Source of the DNA: Gemmatimonadota bacterium
GTDB taxonomy: Bacteria > Gemmatimonadota > Gemmatimonadetes > JACCXV01 > JAHWKZ01
DNA: 64,000 nucleotides
Reading direction: 5' to 3'
Assembly (NCBI GenBank): GCA_033722155.1
Contig: JAWVZN010000005.1
Location: 8,770-72,769, forward strand
Position 1 is the stretch's first letter. The number at the start of each line of letters is the position of its first letter. Positions 4,946-53,768 of the stretch are shown here, in pieces. A program made the translations under genes and the position numbers. The notes below the pieces were generated by a model, which ran no database searches, had not been told where the DNA came from, and saw only the letters and a list, made by a program, of their open reading frames with translations.

Positions 4946-7309
4946 ATGTTCCCGCCCACCGCCACCTCGTCGAGCGAACCGCCTCCACCGGCCGGGGCGG
5001 TCGGCTTCGAGCCCCGGAAGGGCGATCGGTGGACGGTATGGGTGGACCGCACCTCCTCGGACGTCCACGCCTTCGCCCACTCCGTCGCCCGCGGTCTTTC
5101 GGACTCCCCCCGCTGGCTCCACTGCCGCTACCTCTACGACGAGGAGGGGAGCCGGATCTTCCTGAAGATCACCGAGCAGCCGGAGTACTACCTGACGGGG
5201 GCAGAGGTGGAGATCCTCCGCGAGCGCGCCAGCGAGATCCGCGAGGTGGCGGGCGAGGTCCCGCTGGTCGAGCTGGGATCCGGCTCGGCCGCGAAGACCC
5301 ACCACCTCCTGGACGCCTGGACCCGGGCCTCCGGGGAGGTCGAGTACGTGCCGATCGACATCGACCCCTCGGTGTTGACGGAGGCGGCTCGACGGGTGGT
5401 CGAGGCGTACCCGAACCTCCGTGTCGAGGGCCTGGCCACCTCCTACGAGCGGGGGCTGGACCTGCTGCGGGATCGCTCCCCCCTGTGCCTCGTCTTCCTC
5501 GGGTCCACGATCGGCAACTTCAACCCGGACGAGACCGACGCCTTCCTCGCCCGGCTCGAACGGGATCTCGCCCCGAGCGACTCCCTGCTGCTGGGCGTGG
5601 ACCTGGTGAAGGACGCCACGACGCTCGAGGCCGCCTACGACGACGACGCCGGGTGGAGCGAGGCGTTCACCCGGAACCTCTTCGTCCGGATGAACCGGGA
5701 GCTCGGAACCGCGGTCGACCCGGAGACGATCGACCACGTGGCCTACTGGAACGACCGGCTCGAGCGGATCGAGATCTACGCCCGCTTCCTGGAGGCGACC
5801 GAGATCTCCCTCGTCTCGATCGGACGACGCTTTCGGGTCGCGGCGGGCGAGATGGTACTCACCGAGATCAGCCGCAAGTACCGGATCGAGCGGATCGAGG
5901 CCGATCTGGCGCGCTTCGGTTTCCGGCTGGAGCGCTCTTTCACCGACGCCGGCGAGCGGTTCGGGTTGCTGCTGTTCCGGCGGATCGAGGAGACCGGTGC
6001 GCCCCCCGACTGGATGCGGCTCGCGGCGCGCCTCCAGCACGCCCGGCGCCGAACCCTCGAGCTGATCGAGCCGCTGGAGGAGGAACGGCTCGAACGGCAG
6101 GTCCTTCCCTTCCTCTCCCCCGTCCTGTGGGATCTCGGGCACGTGGCGGAGTTCGAGGAGCTGTGGCTGATCCACGCGACCGACGCGCTCGAGGAGGAAG
6201 AGGGCGGCCACGAAGCGTCCCTGGAGCGGATCTACGACGCCACCCGTACCGCCCGCCGGAGTCGGGGCGAGATCGAGCTGCCCGAGCGGGACGCGCTCCT
6301 GGCGCGGCTGCGTCGGATCCGCCGCGAGGCCCTCGCCCGGCTCCGCACCGTGCGGCTCGACCCCGACGAGCCCCTCCTCGCCGACGGCTTCGTCTACCGG
6401 ATGGTCGCCCAGCACGAGCGGCAGCACCAGGAGACGATCCTCCAGGCGATCGCGCGGATGGACGACCTCGCCTACGAGCCCGCCCACCGCCACGACACCC
6501 CCCGCCCGTCCCTTCCCCCGGACGCGGAGGCCGTGCTCGTCCCCGGGGGCGCCTTCGTGATGGGGGCCGTCGACGACCCGGCCGCCTACGACAACGAGCG
6601 GCCGGCCCACTGGGTGGACCTGGAGGCGTACTGGATCGACACGTCGCCGGTCACCAACGGCGACTTCCTGGAGTTCGTCCGCGCGGGCGGCTACGAGCGG
6701 CGCGATTGGTGGAGCGAGGATGGGTGGGCGTGGCTCCGGGAGGCGGGGGTGGAGCACCCGCTGGGATGGCGTCGCGGCGCGAACGGCTGGGTGGAGACGG
6801 GCTTCGGGCGGGACGAGCCGCTGGTTCCGACCCGGCCGGTGGTCCACGTCTGCTTCTGGGAGGCGGAGGCCTTCGCCCGGTCGGTCGGAAAGCGCCTCCC
6901 CACCGAGGCGGAGTGGGAGAAGGCGGCGGCCTGGAACCCCGAGACCCGGGTCTCCCGCCGCTGGCCCTGGGGCGACGCTCCACCCGATCCGGGTCGCGCC
7001 AACCTCGACGCCCGAACCTTCGCCCCCGCCCCCCTCGGCGCGTATCCCGAAGGCCGCTCCTTCTACGGCTGCCACCAGCTGATCGGCGACGTGTGGGAGT
7101 GGACCGCCACGGAGTTCGGCCCCTATCCCGGGTTCGAGCCCTTCCCCTATCCCGAGTACTCCGAGGTCCATTTCGGCGAGGGGTACCGGGTGCTGCGCGG
7201 GGGCTCGTGGGCCACCGGCGTCGACGTCGCCCGCAACACCTTCCGCAACTGGGACTGGCCCTACCGCCGTCAGATCTTCGCCGGCTTCCGGTGCGCGAAC
7301 GACGCGTGA
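4946..7309 (+). CDS. egtDB: Fused ergothioneine biosynthesis protein. The N-terminal part is EgtD (histidine N-alpha-methyltransferase). The C-terminal part is EgtB (DinB_2 plus FGE-sulfatase sulfoxide synthase).
   Basis: Residues ~40-330 align with EgtD (ELGSGSAAKT, FLGSTIGNF, LLLGVDLVKD). Residues ~350-500 form a DinB_2 domain (LWDLGHVAEFEELW, QHERQHQE). Residues ~520-787 form an FGE-sulfatase domain (HVCFWEAEAFARS, RVLRGGSW). Confidence 0.8.
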   Translation: MFPPTATSSSEPPPPAGAVGFEPRKGDRWTVWVDRTSSDVHAFAHSVARGLSDSPRWLHCRYLYDEEGSRIFLKITEQPEYYLTGAEVEILRERASEIREVAGEVPLVELGSGSAAKTHHLLDAWTRASGEVEYVPIDIDPSVLTEAARRVVEAYPNLRVEGLATSYERGLDLLRDRSPLCLVFLGSTIGNFNPDETDAFLARLERDLAPSDSLLLGVDLVKDATTLEAAYDDDAGWSEAFTRNLFVRMNRELGTAVDPETIDHVAYWNDRLERIEIYARFLEATEISLVSIGRRFRVAAGEMVLTEISRKYRIERIEADLARFGFRLERSFTDAGERFGLLLFRRIEETGAPPDWMRLAARLQHARRRTLELIEPLEEERLERQVLPFLSPVLWDLGHVAEFEELWLIHATDALEEEEGGHEASLERIYDATRTARRSRGEIELPERDALLARLRRIRREALARLRTVRLDPDEPLLADGFVYRMVAQHERQHQETILQAIARMDDLAYEPAHRHDTPRPSLPPDAEAVLVPGGAFVMGAVDDPAAYDNERPAHWVDLEAYWIDTSPVTNGDFLEFVRAGGYERRDWWSEDGWAWLREAGVEHPLGWRRGANGWVETGFGRDEPLVPTRPVVHVCFWEAEAFARSVGKRLPTEAEWEKAAAWNPETRVSRRWPWGDAPPDPGRANLDARTFAPAPLGAYPEGRSFYGCHQLIGDVWEWTATEFGPYPGFEPFPYPEYSEVHFGEGYRVLRGGSWATGVDVARNTFRNWDWPYRRQIFAGFRCANDA

Positions 7310-13374: not shown

Positions 13375-13878
13375 ATGGAAGAGAGTGCCCGCCCGCGTGT
13401 CGGCGTCGTCATGGGATCGACCTCCGACTGGGAGACGATGCGTCATGCCACCGACACGCTCGACGAGCTGGAAGTGCCGTACGAGGTGGAGGTCGTCTCC
13501 GCCCACCGTACCCCAGACCGTCTGATCGAGTACGCCTCGACCGCCGAGGAGCGGGGGCTCAGGGTCATCATCGCCGGCGCCGGGGGCGCTGCCCACCTGC
13601 CGGGGATGACCGCCTCCAAAACGATCCTCCCCGTGCTCGGCGTCCCGGTGGAGTCGCGAGCCCTGAGCGGCCTCGACTCGCTCCTCTCCATCGTCCAGAT
13701 GCCCGCCGGGGTGCCGGTGGGGACGCTCGCCATCGGCCGCTCGGGGGCGAAGAACGCCGCGCTCCTCGCCGCCGCGATCGTGGGGATCGAGGACGCCCCG
13801 GTCCGCGAAGCGGTTCGCGCCTACCGGGAGCGGCAGACCACGTCCGTCCTGGAGCGCACCGACCCCCGCGAAGGGTGA
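13375..13878 (+). CDS. purE: N5-carboxyaminoimidazole ribonucleotide mutase.
   Basis: [14 protein letters not shown]...[14 protein letters not shown]...VLGVPV are the canonical PurE motifs. Confidence 0.85.
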
Positions 13879-15002
13879 TGAACGTCGGGATCGTCGGCGG
13901 CGGCCAGCTGGGGCGGATGCTCGCTCTCGCGGGCTACCCGCTGGGCGCCCGGTTCCGGTTCCTCGACCCGGCCGAGGATGCCTGCGCGGCGCCGCTCGGC
14001 TCTCACCTCGCGGCCGATTACGACGACGAAGGCGCCCTGGCCGGCCTCGCCGAATGGGCCGATGTCGTCACCATCGAGTTCGAGAACGTCTCCGTCGAGG
14101 CGCTCGAGCGGATCACCGGCACGGTGCCGGTCCATCCGGCGCCCGGCTCGCTCGCGGTGGCTCGCGACCGCCTGGAGGAGAAGACCCTGTTCGATCGGCT
14201 CGGGATCCCGACCCCCGCCTGGGCCGCGGTCGACGATCGCGCGGGGCTCGAGCGGGCCGCCCGGACGATCGGCCTCCCGGCGGTCCTGAAGCGGCGAACC
14301 CTGGGGTACGACGGGAAGGGCCAGGAGGTCGTGGGGGACGAGGGCGACCTCGGGGCGGCGTGGGACCGGCTGGGGAACCTCCCCCTCCTCCTCGAGTCGT
14401 TCGTGGCGTTCGACCGCGAGGTGTCCGTGCTCGCAGCCCGGGCTCGCGACGGGTCGACCGCGTTCTACCCGGTGAGCGAGAACACCCACGAGGAGGGAAT
14501 CCTGCGGGTCTCCGTCAGTCGCCCCGGCGACCCCGCCGCGGAGCCCGCCCGGGAGCTCTCCGGGAGGATCCTCGACGCGCTCGACTACGTGGGCGTACTC
14601 GCGCTCGAGCTGTTCGAGAAGGACGGCGAACTGCTCGCCAACGAGATCGCCCCGCGGGTCCACAATTCCGGCCACTGGTCGATCGAAGGGGCGCGCGCGA
14701 GCCAGTTCGAGAACCACCTGCGCGCGGTGCTCGGGCTGCCGCTCGGCGATCCCTCCCCGGTCGGACTCGCAGCGATGGTCAACTTCATCGGGGAGATCCC
14801 CCCCGTCGAGCAGGTCCTCGCGATCCCCCCGGCGCACCTCCACGTCTACGACAAGGCTCCCCGTCCGGGCCGGAAGATCGGGCACGCCACCGTCCGCGCC
14901 GACGACGAGCGGGAGCTGCGGACGGCCCTCGACCCGCTCCTCGAGCTCGTCGGCCTCCCGGCCCGCTCGACCCGGAGTCGTCCGCCGGCATCCGGGCGGT
15001 GA
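13875..15002 (+). CDS. purK: N5-carboxyaminoimidazole ribonucleotide synthase. Its start overlaps the purE stop (GTGATGA).
   Basis: 375 aa with an ATP-grasp fold ([37 protein letters not shown]). Confidence 0.85.
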
Positions 15003-15015
15003 TCCGCCCGGCGTT

Positions 15016-15834
15016 CTACCGGTCGAGGCGGGAGAAGTCCACCGTACCGTACACCTCTCGCTTCCAGCGAAGTCCGAGATCGGTCACCTCGCCCCGCCTC
15101 TCGCGGGGACGCTCCCGCACGTCCCGGAAGCACTCCCACAGCATGCGCCGTTGCTGGAGCACATGGTCGGGCTCGCCCAGGGGGTGGCCGAAGGGCCACC
15201 GGACGAACAGCGCCCGTGGTGGGGCGAGGCGGCGGGTGATTTCCTTTTCGAGGGAGATCGACACCGTGGGGAGCCCGGCTTCCTCGATCTCCCGCTGGAC
15301 CAGACCCACGGTCTGGTTGCACGTACCTCAGGCGGGCGTCAGCAGGACGAGGTCGACCTCCTCCCTCCGCATCGCCTCGACGACCTCGGGAGCGGTCTCC
15401 TCCACCAGAGCGGCCGTCTGGGGGACGTAACCCATCATGGAGTAGTGGGTGGGCGCCAGGCCGCCCAGCGCACCCTCGTCCACCAGCTCGCGGAGCCGGT
15501 CGAGGGGGAGCAGGATGTTCGGGTCCTCCTTCGCGTCGCGGGTGTCGTAGTGGGTGTGGTCGACCACCAGCTCGGCGAGCTCGGCGTCGTGCGGGATCGC
15601 GCGCCAGGAGGGATCGCCGGCGTCGCAGTCGAAGGCCGGCTGCTCGGCGAAGCGGAAGCCGCCGGTCGTGAAAACCGCGATCCGGCTCTCGGCGAATCGC
15701 CCTTCGAAGGGAACCCACGGCGTCTCCCCTTCGACCTCGGCCTCGGCCGCCTTTCGGGCCCACCACCGCTGCAGCTCCGGGAACGGGCCGATCGCCCGTG
15801 CGACCGCCCGGTCGAGGACGCTCCGGATGGTCAA
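15016..15834 (-). CDS. GrdB/PrdB-family (glycine/betaine/proline reductase component B-like) predicted selenoprotein. It has an in-frame TGA at 15328-15330 read as Sec, and a TTG start overlapping the ATL stop (TTGA).
   Basis: Two track ORFs (15328..16365 and 15016..15309) are in one frame, separated only by the TGA. The context is LVLLTPA-U-GTCNQTVGLVQREIEEAGLPTV (a UxxC motif). An 8-bp hairpin (15299-15317) lies 10 nt after the TGA. A GGGAG SD precedes the TTG. Confidence 0.55.
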
Positions 15835-16163
15835 GCCGTTTCTCCCTCGCTGGCCTCGGGCTCGATCCACCCCCACCGGTCCAGATCGATCGTGCCGTCG
15901 GGGTCGAAACGGACGCCCTCGTCCTCGAGGAGCGCCCGTTGGAGCTCGGGGGGAAGGCCGATCTTGGAGATGGAGATGCCGCCGTGGCGGTTGACGACCC
16001 GGTGCCACGGAACGTCGGTGCCGCTTGGCAGGGCGTGGAGCGCCCACCCCACCGCGCGGGCCGCGCGGGGGTTGCCCGCCAGCGCGGCGACGTGGCCATA
16101 GGTGGCCACCCGGCCGGGCGGGATCCGGCGCACCTGCTCGTAGATCGCGTCGTAGAACGACAC
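15831..16163 (-). CDS. Alkyltransferase-like protein (an ATL, i.e. an Ogt/MGMT-fold protein lacking the reactive Cys). GTG start with a GGAGAGGAA SD. An alternative ATG at 16241 is rejected because it lies inside the tRNA terminator.
   Basis: PGRVATYGHVAALAGNPRAARAVGWALHALP..VPWHRVV has Trp where the reactive Cys of PCHRV sits. Confidence 0.6.
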   Translation of the reverse strand: MSFYDAIYEQVRRIPPGRVATYGHVAALAGNPRAARAVGWALHALPSGTDVPWHRVVNRHGGISISKIGLPPELQRALLEDEGVRFDPDGTIDLDRWGWIEPEASEGETA

Positions 16164-16197
16164 CGGACCGTTCCTCTCCGGACGAGATCGACGCGCG

Positions 16198-16232
16198 AAA
16201 AAAGGCCCGGCTCGCAAGGTACGATCCGGGCC
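16198..16232 (-). terminator. Intrinsic terminator downstream of tRNA-Ala.
   Basis: On the minus strand: GGCCCGG, a 15-nt loop, CCGGGCC, then TTTTTT. Confidence 0.55.
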
Positions 16233-16246
16233 CTCCGTCATTCTGC

Positions 16247-16322
16247 TGGTGGAGCTGATGGGATTCGAACCCACGACCTCCGGAGTGCGATTCCGGCGCT
16301 CTCCCAGCTGAGCTACAGCCCC
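16247..16322 (-). tRNA. tRNA-Ala (anticodon CGC); 76 nt with an encoded CCA.
   Basis: The cloverleaf was folded by hand. It has a G3:U70 pair, the anticodon loop AUCGCAC, and T-loop GGTTCGAATCC. Confidence 0.85.
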
Positions 16323-16377
16323 ACGAGAAACACGAAATATAGGCGGTGGCGGCGCTTCTCACCACGAGGGCGGCGGA

Positions 16378-17180: not shown

Positions 17181-17549
17181 ATGGTGCACGAACACCACCC
17201 CCGTCGCTCGCTGGAGGAGTACCGGGAGTTCCGCGCGGAGATGAACGAGCGGATCCTCGAATCGGGCCACCTGGGGCTCAAGCGGTTCTTCGCGCTCGAC
17301 GACCGGGCGTACGAGGAGGGCGCGCTCGACTCGCCCATCAAGGAGCTTCTCGGACTGGTCTCCTCGCTCGTGCTCCGGTGCGACGACTGCGTCACCTACC
17401 ACCTGGATCGGTGCGTCCACCTCGGCGTCTCCCGGGAAGAGCTCGTCGAGGCGATGAACGTGGGACTCGTGGTGGGAGGCTCGATCGTCATCCCCCACCT
17501 TCGCCGGGCGTTCGCCACCCTCGACGCCCTGCTCGAGGAGCGGAACTAG
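17181..17549 (+). CDS. Carboxymuconolactone decarboxylase / AhpD-like family protein.
   Basis: 122 aa with a CDDCVTYH CxxC...H motif typical of AhpD-like peroxidase-related proteins. Confidence 0.6.
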   Translation: MVHEHHPRRSLEEYREFRAEMNERILESGHLGLKRFFALDDRAYEEGALDSPIKELLGLVSSLVLRCDDCVTYHLDRCVHLGVSREELVEAMNVGLVVGGSIVIPHLRRAFATLDALLEERN

Positions 17550-34388: not shown

Positions 34389-35619
34389 ACCGGATCGCCT
34401 CCACCGGGGTCATCCGGGCGGCCTGGATGGCCGGCCACGCAGTGGCCGCCAGGCTGATCGCGAGGCTGGCGAGGACGATCCCCGCGAGGTTCCACGGCTC
34501 CACGGTGACCGGGAGCGTATCGATGAAGTACACGTCGCCCGGGAGGGAGATGAATCGGTAGCGCGCGAGCAGGAAGACCGCCCCGAGGCCCACGATCACC
34601 CCGAGCCCCGTGCCGACGACCCCGATCAGGACGCCCTGGACGAGGAACACCCGGCGGATCCCCCGGCCGCGCATCCCCATCGAGCGGAGGATCCCGATCT
34701 CCTTCGTCTTGTCCATCACGATCATCGTGAGCGTGCTGATGATGTTGAACGCGGCCACCAGCACGATGAGGACCAAGATAACGAACATGGCCCGCTTCTC
34801 CAGCTTCAGGGCGCTGAACAGCGGCTGGTTCAGCTCGATCCACGTGGTGGTGTAGAACGGGCCCTCCAGCCCCTCGATCGCCCGCTCCCCGATCGCCCGG
34901 GCCGACCAGATGTCGTCCACCCGCGCCGACACCCCGTAGGCCACCTCCCCGGTCCCGAGGTACCGCTGGAGGGCGTCGAGCGAGGTGTACACGAACTTGG
35001 AATCGTACTCGAAGAACCCGCTCCGGAACGTCCCCGCGAGAATGAACTTCTGGAGCTTCGGGACGGTGCCGTGAAGGGGGCTCACCGAGGCGGCCTCGGG
35101 CGTCGTCAGGGTGAGGGTGTCGCCCGGGAACGCCCCCAGCCGATCCGCCAGCAGGTACCCCGTCACCACCTTCGGGTACGCCTCGTCGGGCCCGGGAACG
35201 AGGTCGTACTCGCCGCTCACGATCTGTTCCGGGGTGTCCGCGACCTCACCCTCCAGGCGGGGATCGACGCCCCGGATCACCGCCCCCTCGTTGCGGCCCC
35301 GGCCGTGGCCCACGATCCCCTCCGTGTAGATGAACGGCGCCGCCCCGGTGACGCCCGGGGCTCGCTCGATCCGGTCGACCACGCGTCGATACCCCTCGAT
35401 CGGCTGATTGTTGTACTTCTGGATCATCAGGTGGGGCGTGTTCGTGAGGATCTTGCTTCGGAGGTCCTCCTGCAGCCCGTTCATCACGCTCATCACGATG
35501 ACGAGCGCCGCGACCCCGACGAACACCCCGCCGATCGCGATCAGCCCGATCACCGAGATCACCCCCGAGCGGCGCTTCGACATGAGATACCGCAGCGCGA
35601 TGCGCGTCTCGAGGCTCAT
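34381..35619 (-). CDS. lolE: Lipoprotein-releasing system permease (LolC/E family).
   Basis: 412 aa with a MacB-like periplasmic domain and an FtsX C-terminal 4-TM domain; 8-nt overlap with lolD. Confidence 0.8.
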   Translation of the reverse strand: MSLETRIALRYLMSKRRSGVISVIGLIAIGGVFVGVAALVIVMSVMNGLQEDLRSKILTNTPHLMIQKYNNQPIEGYRRVVDRIERAPGVTGAAPFIYTEGIVGHGRGRNEGAVIRGVDPRLEGEVADTPEQIVSGEYDLVPGPDEAYPKVVTGYLLADRLGAFPGDTLTLTTPEAASVSPLHGTVPKLQKFILAGTFRSGFFEYDSKFVYTSLDALQRYLGTGEVAYGVSARVDDIWSARAIGERAIEGLEGPFYTTTWIELNQPLFSALKLEKRAMFVILVLIVLVAAFNIISTLTMIVMDKTKEIGILRSMGMRGRGIRRVFLVQGVLIGVVGTGLGVIVGLGAVFLLARYRFISLPGDVYFIDTLPVTVEPWNLAGIVLASLAISLAATAWPAIQAARMTPVEAIRYE

Positions 35620-37145
35620 CCCTCCCCCTCCTCCTCCTCGGGCCGCAGCAGCGGGAAGAGGATCACGTCGCGGATCGAGGGGGTGTCGGTGAGGAACATC
35701 ACCAGCCGGTCGACGCCGATCCCCATTCCCGCCGTCGGCGGCATCCCGTACTCCAGCGCGCGCAGGAAGTCCTCGTCCACCGTCGCGGCCGCCTCGACGT
35801 CGCCCGCGGCCGCGCGCTCGGCCTGCTCCTCGAATCGCCGTCGCTGCTCCCGCGGATCGTTCAGCTCGCTGAAGGCGTTGCCGAGCTCCTGGCCGAACAG
35901 GTACACCTCGAACCGCTCCACGAGCCGGGGGTCGTCGGGATGCGACTTCGCCAGCGGCGAGAGCGACTTCGGATGGTCGATCACGAAGGCGGGGCCGGCG
36001 AGGTCCGGCTCGACGAGCTCGACGAAGAGGCGGTCCAGGATCTTGCCGGGCCCGTCGGCGGGCTCGATCTCCATCCCACGTGCCTCCGCCTGAGCGGCGA
36101 GCGCCTCGCGGTCGAGATCTCCGACGTCGATCCCCCTCTCCTCGAGAGCTTCGAGAAAGCGGACCCGGGGCCAGGGCGGTGCGACGTCCACCGTCACTCC
36201 CTGCCAGGTCAGCGTCGTTCCCCCGGCCACGCGCCCGACGACTTCGGCGATCAGCTCCTCGGTCAGCTCCATGAGGTCGCGGTAGTCGGCGTACGCCTGG
36301 TAGAACTCGAGCATGGTGAACTCGGGGTTGTGGAACCGGCTGAGCCCCTCGTTTCGGAAGTCCTTGGCGATCTCGTACACCCGCTCGATCCCCCCCACCA
36401 CGCACCGCTTCAGGTACAGCTCGTCGGCGATCCTCAGGTACAGGGTGCGATCGAGCGCGTTGTGGTAGGTGGTGAACGGCCGCGCGTTCGCTCCGCCGTA
36501 GACGGGCTGCAGCGCCGGCGTTTCCACCTCGAGGAAACCGCGCGCATCGAGGAAGTCGCGGAGCGACCGGACGATCCGGGCCCGCTCCTCGAACACCTCC
36601 CGCCCCTCGGGACGCACCGCCAGGTCGGCATACCGTTGGCGGTAGCGGAACTCCCGGTCGGCGACCCGGTGATACGCCCGCGTCTCCCCCTCCTCGTCCT
36701 CCACCTCCTTGCCGATCGGCAGTGGACGAAGCGACTTGGCCAGCAGCCGGACCTCCTCGGCCCGGAGCGTCACCTCCCCGGTGCGGGTGCGGAACACCTC
36801 CCCGACCACCCCGAGGAAGTCGCCCAGATCGAGCCGATCGACCAGGCCGTACGCCTCCTCGCCGAGCACGTCCCGGCGCAGGTACGTCTGGATCTTCGCG
36901 CTGGCGTCGGCCAGGTGGAGGAAGGTCGACTTGCCGTGGACCCGCATGGAGACGATCCGCCCCGCGATGGCCGCCTCCATCGTCGGCCCCTCGTCCTCGT
37001 AGGCGGCGAGCAGCTCCGCCGCCGTCGCCGTCACCTCCCACGAGGATGGGTAGGGGTCCACCCCCCGCTCCTCGAGCTCCTCGAGCTTGGAGCGGCGCGC
37101 GACGAGCGGATCGGTCTCCGGCCGGAGGTCCTCGGAATCGGTCAC
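35616..37145 (-). CDS. lysS: Lysyl-tRNA synthetase, class II.
   Basis: 509 aa with an OB-fold anticodon-binding domain and class II motifs (FRNEG, GMGIGVDRL). Confidence 0.9.
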   Translation of the reverse strand: MTDSEDLRPETDPLVARRSKLEELEERGVDPYPSSWEVTATAAELLAAYEDEGPTMEAAIAGRIVSMRVHGKSTFLHLADASAKIQTYLRRDVLGEEAYGLVDRLDLGDFLGVVGEVFRTRTGEVTLRAEEVRLLAKSLRPLPIGKEVEDEEGETRAYHRVADREFRYRQRYADLAVRPEGREVFEERARIVRSLRDFLDARGFLEVETPALQPVYGGANARPFTTYHNALDRTLYLRIADELYLKRCVVGGIERVYEIAKDFRNEGLSRFHNPEFTMLEFYQAYADYRDLMELTEELIAEVVGRVAGGTTLTWQGVTVDVAPPWPRVRFLEALEERGIDVGDLDREALAAQAEARGMEIEPADGPGKILDRLFVELVEPDLAGPAFVIDHPKSLSPLAKSHPDDPRLVERFEVYLFGQELGNAFSELNDPREQRRRFEEQAERAAAGDVEAAATVDEDFLRALEYGMPPTAGMGIGVDRLVMFLTDTPSIRDVILFPLLRPEEEEGEG

Positions 37146-37181: not shown

Positions 37182-38301
37182 TCAGGGCGACTCCGACGCT
37201 CCCGCCGTCTGTCGGAGCCAGGCCTCCATGAACTCGGTGATCTCTCCATCGAGCACCCTGTCGACATCGGAGGTCTCCTGATCGGTGCGATGGTCCTTCA
37301 CCATCGTGTAGGGATGGAGCACGTAGGAGCGGATCTGGCTGCCGAACGCGATCTGCTTCTTCTCCGCCTCGAGCTCCTCCCGGGACTTCTCCTGCTCCGC
37401 CTTGTAGAACTGGTAGAGCCGCGAGCGCAGGAGGCGCATCGCGATCTCCCGGTTGCGGTGCTGGCTCCGCTCGGCCTGGCTCTGGACCACGATCCCCGTC
37501 GGCTCGTGGGTGATCCTCACCGCCGAATCCGTCTTGTTGACGTGCTGTCCGCCGGCTCCGCTGGCGCGATAGGTGTCGACCTTGAGGTCCTTGTCCTGGA
37601 TCTCCACCGTGATCTCGTCGGCGACGTCCGGATATACGAACACCGAGGCGAACGAGGTGTGGCGGCGGGCGTTGGCGTCGAAGGGACTGATCCGGACCAG
37701 CCGATGAACCCCCTTCTCCGCCTTGAGGTAGCCGTAGGCGTACTCTCCCTCCGCCTCCACCGTGGCGCGGGTAATCCCCGCCTCCTCTCCCTGCTGGAGG
37801 TCGACGACCTGGAACTCGTACTCGTTGGCCTCGAGCCACCGGGTGTACATGCGCAGCAGCATGGCGGCCCAATCCTGGCTCTCGGTCCCCCCGGCGCCGG
37901 GATGGATCGTCAGGATGGCGCCGCGATGGTCGTCGGGGTCGCGGAGCATGCCTCGGAACTCGTACCGCTCGACCCGATCGATCAGACTCTCCAACATCCC
38001 GTCGAACTCGGCGGTCAGCGCCCCCTCCTCGTCCTCCTCCAGAAGGGGCAGCATCTCCCGCGCCTCGTCGAGATCCCGCTTGAGGTCGTCGAAGGCCTCG
38101 ACCCAGCGACGGTGCCGGTCGAGCTCGGTCAGGATGTCGCGCGCCCGCTCGTTGTCGTCCCAGAAGTCGGGCTCCGTCGAGGCGCGCTGAAGCGTCTCTA
38201 TCCGCTCCCGCTTCGCGGACAGGTCAAAGATAGCTCCCGAGGAGATCGAGCCGCTCCTCTAAGACTTCGATCGTATCCCGGTACCCGCGTACGTCGCTCA
38301 T
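37182..38301 (-). CDS. prfB: Peptide chain release factor 2, requiring a programmed +1 frameshift at CUU UGA C (~38224-38231).
   Basis: Frame 0 is ATG...MSDVRGYRDTIEVLEERLDLLGSYL, then TGA. Frame +1 continues DLSAKRERIETLQRASTEPDFW... into the SPF and GGQ (SGAGGQHVN) domains. An internal SD GGGAGC lies 3 nt before CUU. Confidence 0.85.
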
Positions 38302-53018: not shown

Positions 53019-53570
53019 TCAGCGCAGGCAGAGCGAGTAGCGGGAAAAGTGGCGGATGTCGACGGTCACGGTGTTCGTGGCGGAGTCGTACGTCCCCCCG
53101 ATCACCTGCCAGTCGTCGGCGTCGTCGGACGCGCCGGCGATCGCGAGATCGCTCCCGTCGATCCGGTCCAGGTTCGCCTTGTCCGCCGAGATCTCGAGGG
53201 TGGCGGCTGGATCGAACTGGAGGCCGTTCGGACCGAACGCGAAGGCGAGGAGACCATCGCCCTCCGCCTTCATCGTGATCGTCGTGTCCTCCGGGATCGA
53301 GCCCGGCGCGATGGTCAGCGCGGCGTCGTCGTTCGTGATCGTGGCGCCGTCCCGGGCGCTCACGCGCTCGGCGGTGGCGCCGTTGGATGCGAGGAAGATC
53401 CCCCGCGCTTCCGGCTTCACCTTCACGAGCTGAACGCCGTTGACGGTGACCGCCGGAACGTCCGCGTCTCGGTTGGGGGTGAGCGGGCCGTCTGCCGTCT
53501 CGCACGCTGCCAAGCCCAGGACGACCACGGCCAGGAGCGCCCGGCGGAAGGGCTTCCAGAGGTGCGGCAT
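53019..53570 (-). CDS. Hypothetical lipoprotein, the first gene after the sigma-54 promoter.
   Basis: Signal plus lipobox VVLGLAAC; a GGAGG SD lies 6 nt upstream. Confidence 0.5.
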   Translation of the reverse strand: MPHLWKPFRRALLAVVVLGLAACETADGPLTPNRDADVPAVTVNGVQLVKVKPEARGIFLASNGATAERVSARDGATITNDDAALTIAPGSIPEDTTITMKAEGDGLLAFAFGPNGLQFDPAATLEISADKANLDRIDGSDLAIAGASDDADDWQVIGGTYDSATNTVTVDIRHFSRYSLCLR

Positions 53571-53768
53571 GGCGACCTCCTCAGGTGGCTGCCTGCCCCG
53601 GTCCGCGAGGCGGCTCGGGGCCGATTCGTCTCGGGTGGCTCCGGCCGTCCGCTGGTGACCCAGAGAGGACCCGGTGGCTTTGCGTCCCCCGCTCTCACGG
53701 GGTTTGCCCTTTTCCGAGGACGTCCGTCGAGTTTTTCGCGATCCCTGGCGGGATCGGCCGCAATCGTG

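Follow-up and report, generated by a model that had tools for sequence, protein, structure and literature searches.

The closest described relatives of the gene analyzed here are PrdB, the selenoprotein of D-proline reductase, and the selenoprotein B subunits GrdB, GrdF, and GrdH of the glycine/betaine/sarcosine reductases. In PrdB, the selenolate attacks the C-alpha of a D-proline held on the pyruvoyl group of PrdA, a protein required for the reaction; PrdB then depends on the electron-transfer protein PrdC for its regeneration, and a U151C variant is inactive (PMC11229817). Selenoproteins carrying the PrdB name have also been catalogued in environmental sequence collections and in other bacterial genomes. 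In the Sargasso Sea, 'proline reductase PrdB' was the third most abundant family, with 42 selenoprotein genes vs. a single Cys form (PMC1088965), while the GOS data held 235 Sec and 110 Cys forms (PMC2398784). PrdB selenoproteins were reported from Anaeromyxobacter dehalogenans and Geobacter uraniireducens (PMC1794560), and 131 PrdB genes were found in 110 bacterial genomes (PMC5029168). As PrdB-type U-x-x-C selenoproteins have been listed since the Sargasso Sea (2005) and GOS (2008) surveys, this kind of protein is already known, although the survey literature gives the name PrdB without an examination of partners or function (PMC1088965, PMC2398784, PMC1794560). An earlier reading of the present locus, made from the letters alone (hereafter the sequence-only reading), described GrdB-like selenoproteins outside Stickland-fermenting clostridia as poorly characterized; this stands as far as their function is concerned, which is unstudied, but not for their existence, catalogued by these same surveys since 2005–2008.

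The locus is part of a 64-kb stretch of Gemmatimonadota DNA (the window). On its minus strand, positions 15834 to 15016 form one frame of 272 sense codons, predicted selenocysteine codon 169 included, which starts with TTG (15832–15834), ends with TAG (15018–15016), and contains a sole internal TGA at 15328–15330. We consider this to be a complete gene for a PrdB-like selenoprotein. The two adjacent ORFs from which the sequence-only reading had started (15328–16365 and 15016–15309) are both present in the ORF list and have this frame in common, and translation confirmed that the TGA is the only interruption of 15834–15016, the part beyond it being conserved with many synonymous changes. The TGA is embedded in the context EEVDLVLLTPA-TGA-GTCNQTVGLVQREIEEAGLPTVSI, i.e., a TPA-U-GTC motif in which the TGC at 15319–15321 encodes Cys172, the partner of the Sec in U-x-x-C; a Cys at this position, three residues past the Sec column, is at least 90% conserved across full-length homologues. 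The TTG start overlaps the TGA stop (15831–15833) of the gene upstream and is preceded by a GGGAG (15842–15846) located 7 nt in the 5′ direction, as had been proposed; the overlap is conserved in the lineage, and the start is shared with the 168-aa NCBI call as well as with the homologues of 168 aa, which have the same N-terminus.

In the public record, MDX1622762.1 ('glycine/sarcosine/betaine reductase selenoprotein B family protein') matches the first 168 residues without a difference, while the C-terminal 97 aa are identical to MDX1622761.1, annotated separately as a hypothetical protein. With one call on either side of the TGA, GenBank splits a single gene; the division into a 168-aa and a 97-aa protein is wrong, the full product having 272 residues. 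Merging the two ORFs into one selenoprotein is an annotation correction that would be routine by itself.

Family assignment was performed with the Sec written as Cys. The protein matched PF07355 (GRDB) with 41.3 bits, above the gathering score of 22, and its best match among the curated NCBIfam models was PrdB (TIGR04483; E-value 2e−42, 145.2 bits, profile positions 17–222 of 238), in agreement with the GrdB/PrdB-family membership that had been claimed for it. The score nevertheless remained under the equivalog cut-off of TIGR04483 (300 bits), and those for GrdB (TIGR01917; 55.7 vs. 602.2), GrdH (69.8 vs. 775), and GrdF (57.9 vs. 800) were all below theirs, while TIGR01918 ('glycine/betaine/sarcosine/D-proline family reductase selenoprotein B') was missed marginally (64.4 vs. 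65.45). Given these scores under the equivalog cut-offs, the protein is a PrdB-like member of the superfamily and not an equivalog of PrdB or GrdB. It resembles PrdB of Clostridium sticklandii and Clostridioides difficile in size (272 aa vs. ~240 aa), in the U-x-x-C motif, and in having a SECIS-type element inside the ORF; Sec169 is placed at aligned profile position ~149, the Sec of the C. difficile protein being U151. It differs from these systems in that prdA, prdH, prdC, and prdR are missing from the locus and in that the host belongs to Gemmatimonadota and is not a Stickland fermenter. With GrdB, GrdF, and GrdH the homology covers their C-terminal half (PF07355 positions 267–345 of 347), directly followed by the UxxC Sec motif, but the N-terminal half of the ~430-aa GrdB is missing from the protein, and no grdA, grdC, or grdE is present in the window. 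A weak local likeness around the Sec (residues 148–194 only) was found to the UGSC family (~147 aa, motif U-G-[ST]-C; NF041046, 17.1 bits vs. a cut-off of 125, E-value 0.004), which is at most a distant relative. By description, the gene is most like the environmental and deltaproteobacterial PrdB proteins, as these also combine pfam07355 with UxxC outside the Stickland clostridia; it belongs to the catalogued stand-alone 'PrdB' selenoproteins, of which it is a new and misannotated member.

In order to follow the TGA across related genomes, a pattern scan built solely on N-terminal fragments was used that retained one genome per species and returned 293 relatives, the 80 best of which were examined at the TGA column. 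All 80 had TGA-x-x-TGY at this column, with a well conserved continuation 3′ of the TGA-x-x-Cys. They came from seven phyla, namely Gemmatimonadota, Bacillota (including Bacillus/Neobacillus), Desulfuromonadales/Geobacteraceae, Acidobacteriota, Chloroflexota, Nitrospirota, and Actinomycetota. Other homologues carry Cys at the Sec column (P0036, P0039, P0078, P0113, P0115, P0117, and P0122), so the Sec/Cys column of the family and the TGA coincide, as the sequence-only reading had expected of an alignment. Additional database proteins are continuous through the column with W (P0034, P0038, P0092, and others) or, in a few cases, with S, R, or D; code-4 gene calls over the TGA are the simplest explanation for the W. 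Around 33 homologues with 59–78% identity are nearly all called at 168 aa (a few at 163–173 aa), which means that the called proteins end at the TGA column.

The region downstream of the TGA behaves like coding sequence. When the 105 codons that begin with the TGA (103 after it) were compared with the 168 upstream codons against three Gemmatimonadota relatives (loci L001, L081, and L083), protein identity was 69–75% in the post-TGA part vs. 67–72% in the pre-TGA part, synonymous-only differences were present in 25–30 post-TGA codons, and the position of the stop codon varied within four codons. This level of identity, together with the synonymous-only changes, indicates that the downstream frame is under purifying selection. 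The genetic code is standard, as TGA ends 48 of the window's 63 genes, among which prfB (RF2) has a UGA-dependent frameshift site. When the window was scanned for other in-frame TGAs flanked on either side by coding signal, one further site emerged, at 37184, which was rejected as a second recoded TGA because it is the stop of prfB ahead of lysS.

Ten nucleotides past the TGA, the mRNA can form the perfect hairpin ACCAGACC-GUG-GGUCUGGU (15299–15317, minus strand), in which an 8-bp stem (15317–15310 paired with 15306–15299) closes a GUG loop (15309–15307) and which folds in isolation with −11.7 kcal/mol. The stability of the 66-nt region is unremarkable (z = −0.06) in a window of 70.6% GC, but perfect 8-bp hairpins with loops of 3–10 nt are rare, numbering 28 per strand over the 64 kb and giving a chance of ~0.3% that one starts within the 7-nt slot after a given codon. 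The register of the hairpin is conserved in the window and the 80 related loci (81 sequences). In a gap-free 48-nt alignment (A3) of the 76 distinct sequences, 96.7% of the 608 cells of the 8-bp structure are paired, and three stem pairs show compensatory changes: columns 15–31 (UA in 56, CG in 13), columns 19–27 (UA in 59, AU in 4), and columns 18–28 (GC in 46, AU in 30, with zero mismatches), the last corresponding to CAG/CUG and CAA/UUG codon combinations that are linked in 76 of 76 sequences. The observed pairing or covariation was matched by none of 500 shuffles, and sliding the stem by 1–3 columns reduced pairing to 5–56%. In the loop, the first base is an invariant G and the next one a U that is more than 90% conserved. 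The CAG/CUG vs. CAA/UUG and AAC/GUC vs. AAU/AUU switches also track genomic GC; against a pure GC effect speak the perfect linkage and the occurrence of both states within Desulfuromonadales, as well as the Leu codon, which is always YUG though six codons are possible, and the UCC-GGA vs. ACC-GGU switch, which is GC-neutral.

The hairpin agrees with the published model of bacterial SECIS elements (the consensus constraints behind bSECISearch, PMC13188914) in all four of its criteria, i.e., a 3-nt loop starting with GU, 8 bp, a UGA-loop spacing of 18 nt, and −11.7 kcal/mol. As in the SECIS of the E. coli fdhF type, it lies directly 3′ of the UGA with loop, stem, spacing, and energy within the model, but it has no sequence similarity to the characterized elements. 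No Rfam match to SECIS was found here at either gathering or permissive thresholds, which is unsurprising since characterized bacterial SECIS elements share little sequence among themselves (PMC13188914). Three homologues with a Cys codon (TGT or TGC) served as controls; 3, 6, and 4 of the 8 pairs remained in register in them, and the hairpin was not formed. The stem is encoded by mutually complementary codons of the N-Q-(S/T)-V-G-L-(V/I) block, and because it is built from these codons, the block tolerates little variation in Sec forms but more in Cys forms. The GUG-loop hairpin pointed out in the sequence-only reading is thus real, conserved with covariation, and of the bacterial SECIS type; as a candidate SECIS inside the coding sequence, it would direct Sec decoding of UGA169 from 10 nt downstream. 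Taken together, the TGA column, the hairpin, and the downstream conservation support the selenoprotein prediction, and every refutation test that could be run was favorable to it. On these sequence comparisons, we are highly confident that the locus contains a genuine PrdB-like gene that encodes Sec, with UGA169 predicted to be decoded as such.

The gene neighborhood offers no sign of the known reductase systems. Upstream of the PrdB-like gene, a gene for 110 aa (15831–16163, minus strand; MDX1622763.1, annotated 'MGMT family protein') matched PF01035 with 95.8 bits; since it combines the MGMT DNA-binding domain with PWHRV in place of the active-site PCHRV and has no Cys, it encodes an alkyltransferase-like (ATL) protein, which bears out the alkyltransferase-like neighbor of the sequence-only reading, whose adjacency is conserved in the lineage. 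The minus-strand order is tRNA-Ala, ATL, PrdB-like, (purK-purE on the other strand), GGACT, thrS, cation-efflux, and saccharopine dehydrogenase. The block ATL/PrdB-like/GGACT/thrS recurs down to 59% identity in seven related loci (L001, L081–L083, and L091–L093), the 4-nt overlap between the ATL and PrdB-like genes being present in the window, L081, L083, and L091, while the two are 30 nt apart in L092 and L093. Among the relatives' loci examined, ATL adjacency was absent outside this close Gemmatimonadota lineage. Other lineages have other neighbors: a two-domain rhodanese gene lies directly upstream and co-oriented in ~17 Desulfuromonadales loci, rhodanese genes are located within 5 kb of the PrdB-like gene in several Bacillus loci, and a CMD/AhpD-like gene adjoins it in Blastocatellia and Chloroflexota, a CxxC AhpD-like gene being present in the window as well (17181–17549, 1.3 kb away). 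In Bacillus and Neobacillus, the gene lies in a conserved cluster that also comprises genes for VTT/DedA, LPG_synthase_TM, and ABC transporters. No PrdA, GrdE, GrdA, GrdC, or PrdC domains were found in window genes of at least 140 aa or in the annotated neighborhoods of relatives; the lack of a GrdA/GrdC partner noted from the sequence therefore extends in the window to GrdE and PrdA.

As ATL adjacency is confined to one lineage, functional coupling is inseparable from inherited synteny. A functional two-gene module for dealkylation, in which the Cys-less ATL would recognize alkylated DNA bases and the Sec169 selenolate would act as a carbon-attacking nucleophile, like the PrdB Sec on the proline C-alpha, so that the pair jointly restores dealkylation, is in our view highly improbable. 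In a broader form of this idea, the stand-alone PrdB-like proteins may constitute a distinct class of pyruvoyl-free selenol enzymes with lineage-specific partners (ATL, rhodanese, or AhpD-like).

Several other explanations of the TGA were weighed against Sec. It could be a real stop, so that only a 168-residue fragment is made and the 97–103 codons downstream are left over from a decaying gene or constitute a small ORF of their own, as the two publicly annotated ORFs and the lack of visible Sec machinery in the window would suggest; yet conservation of the frame after the TGA equals that before it, with many changes that are only synonymous, the TGA, the xxC, and the hairpin are kept in 80 of the 80 best relatives across phyla, the Cys homologues are continuous proteins, and the fragment would terminate just ahead of the catalytic residue of the family, so we regard a genuine stop as very unlikely. 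A reading as Trp, Cys, or Gly, through a reassigned code or near-cognate suppression, finds some echo in the W that a number of database pipelines give at this column (P0034, P0038, P0092, and others), but it is at odds with the use of TGA to end 48 of the 63 window genes and with the RF2 gene and its UGA-dependent frameshift site, and it does not account for the conserved GU-loop hairpin that accompanies the TGA and is unformed in the three Cys-codon homologues; we hold it to be extremely improbable. Because the sequence comes from a metagenome-assembled genome, it also has to be considered that a TGC or TGT Cys codon was misread in sequencing or assembly, but the probability of this is practically negligible, given that the same column has TGA in 80/80 of the best relatives and that the product of an independent ENA assembly (P0205), from the same 90%-identity cluster, is also called at 168 aa and so stops at the TGA.

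Even with Sec accepted at codon 169, the protein could be a genuine selenoprotein subunit of D-proline or glycine/betaine/sarcosine reductase whose PrdA/GrdE, GrdA, and GrdC partners are encoded elsewhere. PrdB as best curated match (TIGR04483, E-value 2e−42), the TIGR01918 score just under its cut-off (64.4 vs. 65.45), the UxxC motif, and the PrdB-like size all point in this direction. Against it stand the distance to the equivalog cut-offs (145 vs. 300 for PrdB, 55.7 vs. 602 for GrdB), the absence of PrdA, GrdE, GrdA, GrdC, and PrdC from the window (genes of at least 140 aa) and from the annotated neighborhoods of relatives, and neighbors that differ between lineages and have no relation to Stickland genes, whereas prdA-prdB and grdA-grdB form operons in the established systems (PMC13188914). 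We therefore give very little credence to a canonical reductase subunit, and consider it likely, with good confidence, that the locus encodes a stand-alone PrdB-like PF07355 selenoprotein with SECIS-directed Sec169 and a putative U-x-x-C redox function.

The AF2 model of a full-length homologue (P0034, 46% identical; pLDDT 90.4) places the Sec position in a loop after the strand 148–152 and the Cys as the first residue of the helix 158–171. By this model, Sec169 and Cys172 would form a U-x-x-C center where a beta-strand meets an alpha-helix within a Rossmann-like alpha/beta domain. The protein of the window keeps the conserved polar residues GDPS-R, H-YD, D-N-PLDRLREL, and SxMG. In D-proline reductase, according to the older literature on this enzyme, the cysteine of UxxC resolves the selenoether into a selenenylsulfide. 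By analogy with PrdB, the nucleophile attacking a substrate atom would be the selenolate of Sec169; Cys172 would then turn the adduct into a Sec169-Cys172 selenenylsulfide, to be re-reduced by a dithiol protein, a role that thioredoxin or an AhpD-like CxxC protein (e.g., the one encoded 1.3 kb away) could fill. A selenol/thiol reductase is proposed since the U-x-x-C center is kept while the pyruvoyl partner is missing; whether it operates by such a selenenylsulfide mechanism without PrdA is, in our estimation, about evenly balanced. With no PrdA or GrdE at the window or at the examined loci of relatives, pyruvoyl-bound D-proline or glycine is unlikely to be the substrate, and in particular the substrate is probably not pyruvoyl-bound D-proline.

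Regarding Sec machinery, ARAGORN found tRNA-Ala(CGC) and tRNA-Leu only, thus no tRNA-Sec in the 64-kb window, and tRNA-Sec was likewise absent from 60 related loci. SelA, SelB, and SelD were not detected in the window, either by Pfam scans covering essentially all genes of at least 140 aa or by motif scans. A fused EgtD-EgtB gene was considered as a possible selenoneine synthase SenA, which would have been a sign of selenium metabolism, and was rejected because it scores as EgtB and not as SenA. No literature specific to selenocysteine use in Gemmatimonadota was found, and the predicted gene would document such use in a lineage of this phylum.

Few environmental selenoproteins are more abundant than the stand-alone PrdB-like ones, yet the name 'proline reductase' finds no backing in their gene contexts. 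To the surveys of these proteins, the present comparison adds concrete material from which their function may be approached, namely the lack of a PrdA partner and a cross-phylum SECIS placed in a palindromic N-Q-S-V-G-L-I codon block. PrdB-like selenoproteins occur as well in cultured strains of Bacillus and Neobacillus, e.g., Bacillus benzoevorans DSM 5391 and Neobacillus niacini, and in Pelovirga terrestris.

In the GenBank record of the source MAG, the selenoprotein gene (window 15016-15834, minus strand; 272 codons) is cut at its in-frame TGA into two proteins, MDX1622762.1 (168 aa; 15328-15834) and MDX1622761.1 (97 aa, hypothetical, R3199_02120; 15016-15309), and a transl_except annotation for selenocysteine (Sec) is required there. 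In the homologues of one subfamily, the PrdB-like core is extended at its C-terminus by an additional domain of ~130-170 aa (P0039, P0089, P0090, P0094-P0109, P0113, P0115, P0117, and P0122). This domain was found in Cys forms; in Sec forms it is present in separately called "hypothetical proteins" of ~230 aa, which begin just 3' of the TGA. At the alignment position of Sec169 (alignment A6, continuous homologues), a few proteins have, in place of Sec or Cys, Ser (P0116, P0118, P0119, P0123), Arg (P0093, P0112), or Asp (P0121); all of these keep the downstream Cys of the U-x-x-C motif, and either miscalls or variants without redox function may account for them.

The surroundings of the gene differ between lineages. 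The block formed by the alkyltransferase-like gene, the PrdB-like gene, GGACT, and thrS is unbroken in all relatives examined, whereas in the window it is split by purE-purK (13399-15002, plus strand), which lies between the PrdB-like gene and GGACT on the opposite strand. A gene whose CMD/AhpD-like product carries the motif RCDDCxxxH is located 1.3 kb from the selenoprotein gene (17181-17549, plus strand); such genes are also present in the related loci L085 (4519-4905), L087 (4557-4871), and L081 (1779-2192). CMD genes adjoin PrdB-like genes in Blastocatellia and Chloroflexota. The CMD/AhpD-like protein is a possible dithiol partner of the selenoprotein. The gene directly 5' of the PrdB-like selenoprotein gene in Desulfuromonadales and Geopsychrobacteraceae encodes, in the same orientation, a two-domain rhodanese (~300 aa); it lies some 0.6-1.6 kb before the TGA (loci L015, L017, L022, L025, L026, L029, L033/L084, L034, L038, L046, L047, L054, L055, L058, L071, and L080), and the two genes look like an operon. 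The rhodanese of L084, the one inspected, has an N-terminal start that resembles a signal peptide. A TGA-containing PrdB-like gene also occurs in cultured aerobic Bacillaceae (L002 and ~20 other loci from Bacillus, Neobacillus, Niallia, and Guptibacillus), with the motif U-YIC-HQ or U-PVC-QQ and within a conserved cluster with VTT/DedA, LPG_synthase_TM, and ABC-transporter genes; the strains are tractable hosts for testing the family.

Elsewhere in the window, a single 787-aa ORF (4946-7309, plus strand) joins EgtD (TIGR03438, 299.8 bits; cut-off 290.9) to a DinB_2 domain and to EgtB (TIGR03440, 386; cut-off 360), and its product is a one-polypeptide ergothioneine synthase; an identity as SenA was rejected (350; cut-off 420). 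The fused arrangement resembles that of fungal Egt1; among bacteria, the classical Mycobacterium cluster has egtD and egtB as two distinct genes.

The prfB gene (RF2; 37182-38301, minus strand), with lysS downstream (35616-37145), carries a classic programmed +1 frameshift (site 38229-38223), in which the ATG at 38301 and 25 codons are followed by CTT TGA C, preceded by a Shine-Dalgarno-like GGGAGC; gene calling and Pfam caught only the post-shift portion. Upstream of a 183-aa ORF without a match in Pfam (53019-53570) lies a c-di-GMP-I riboswitch (53631-53718, minus strand; RF01051, 49.5 bits).
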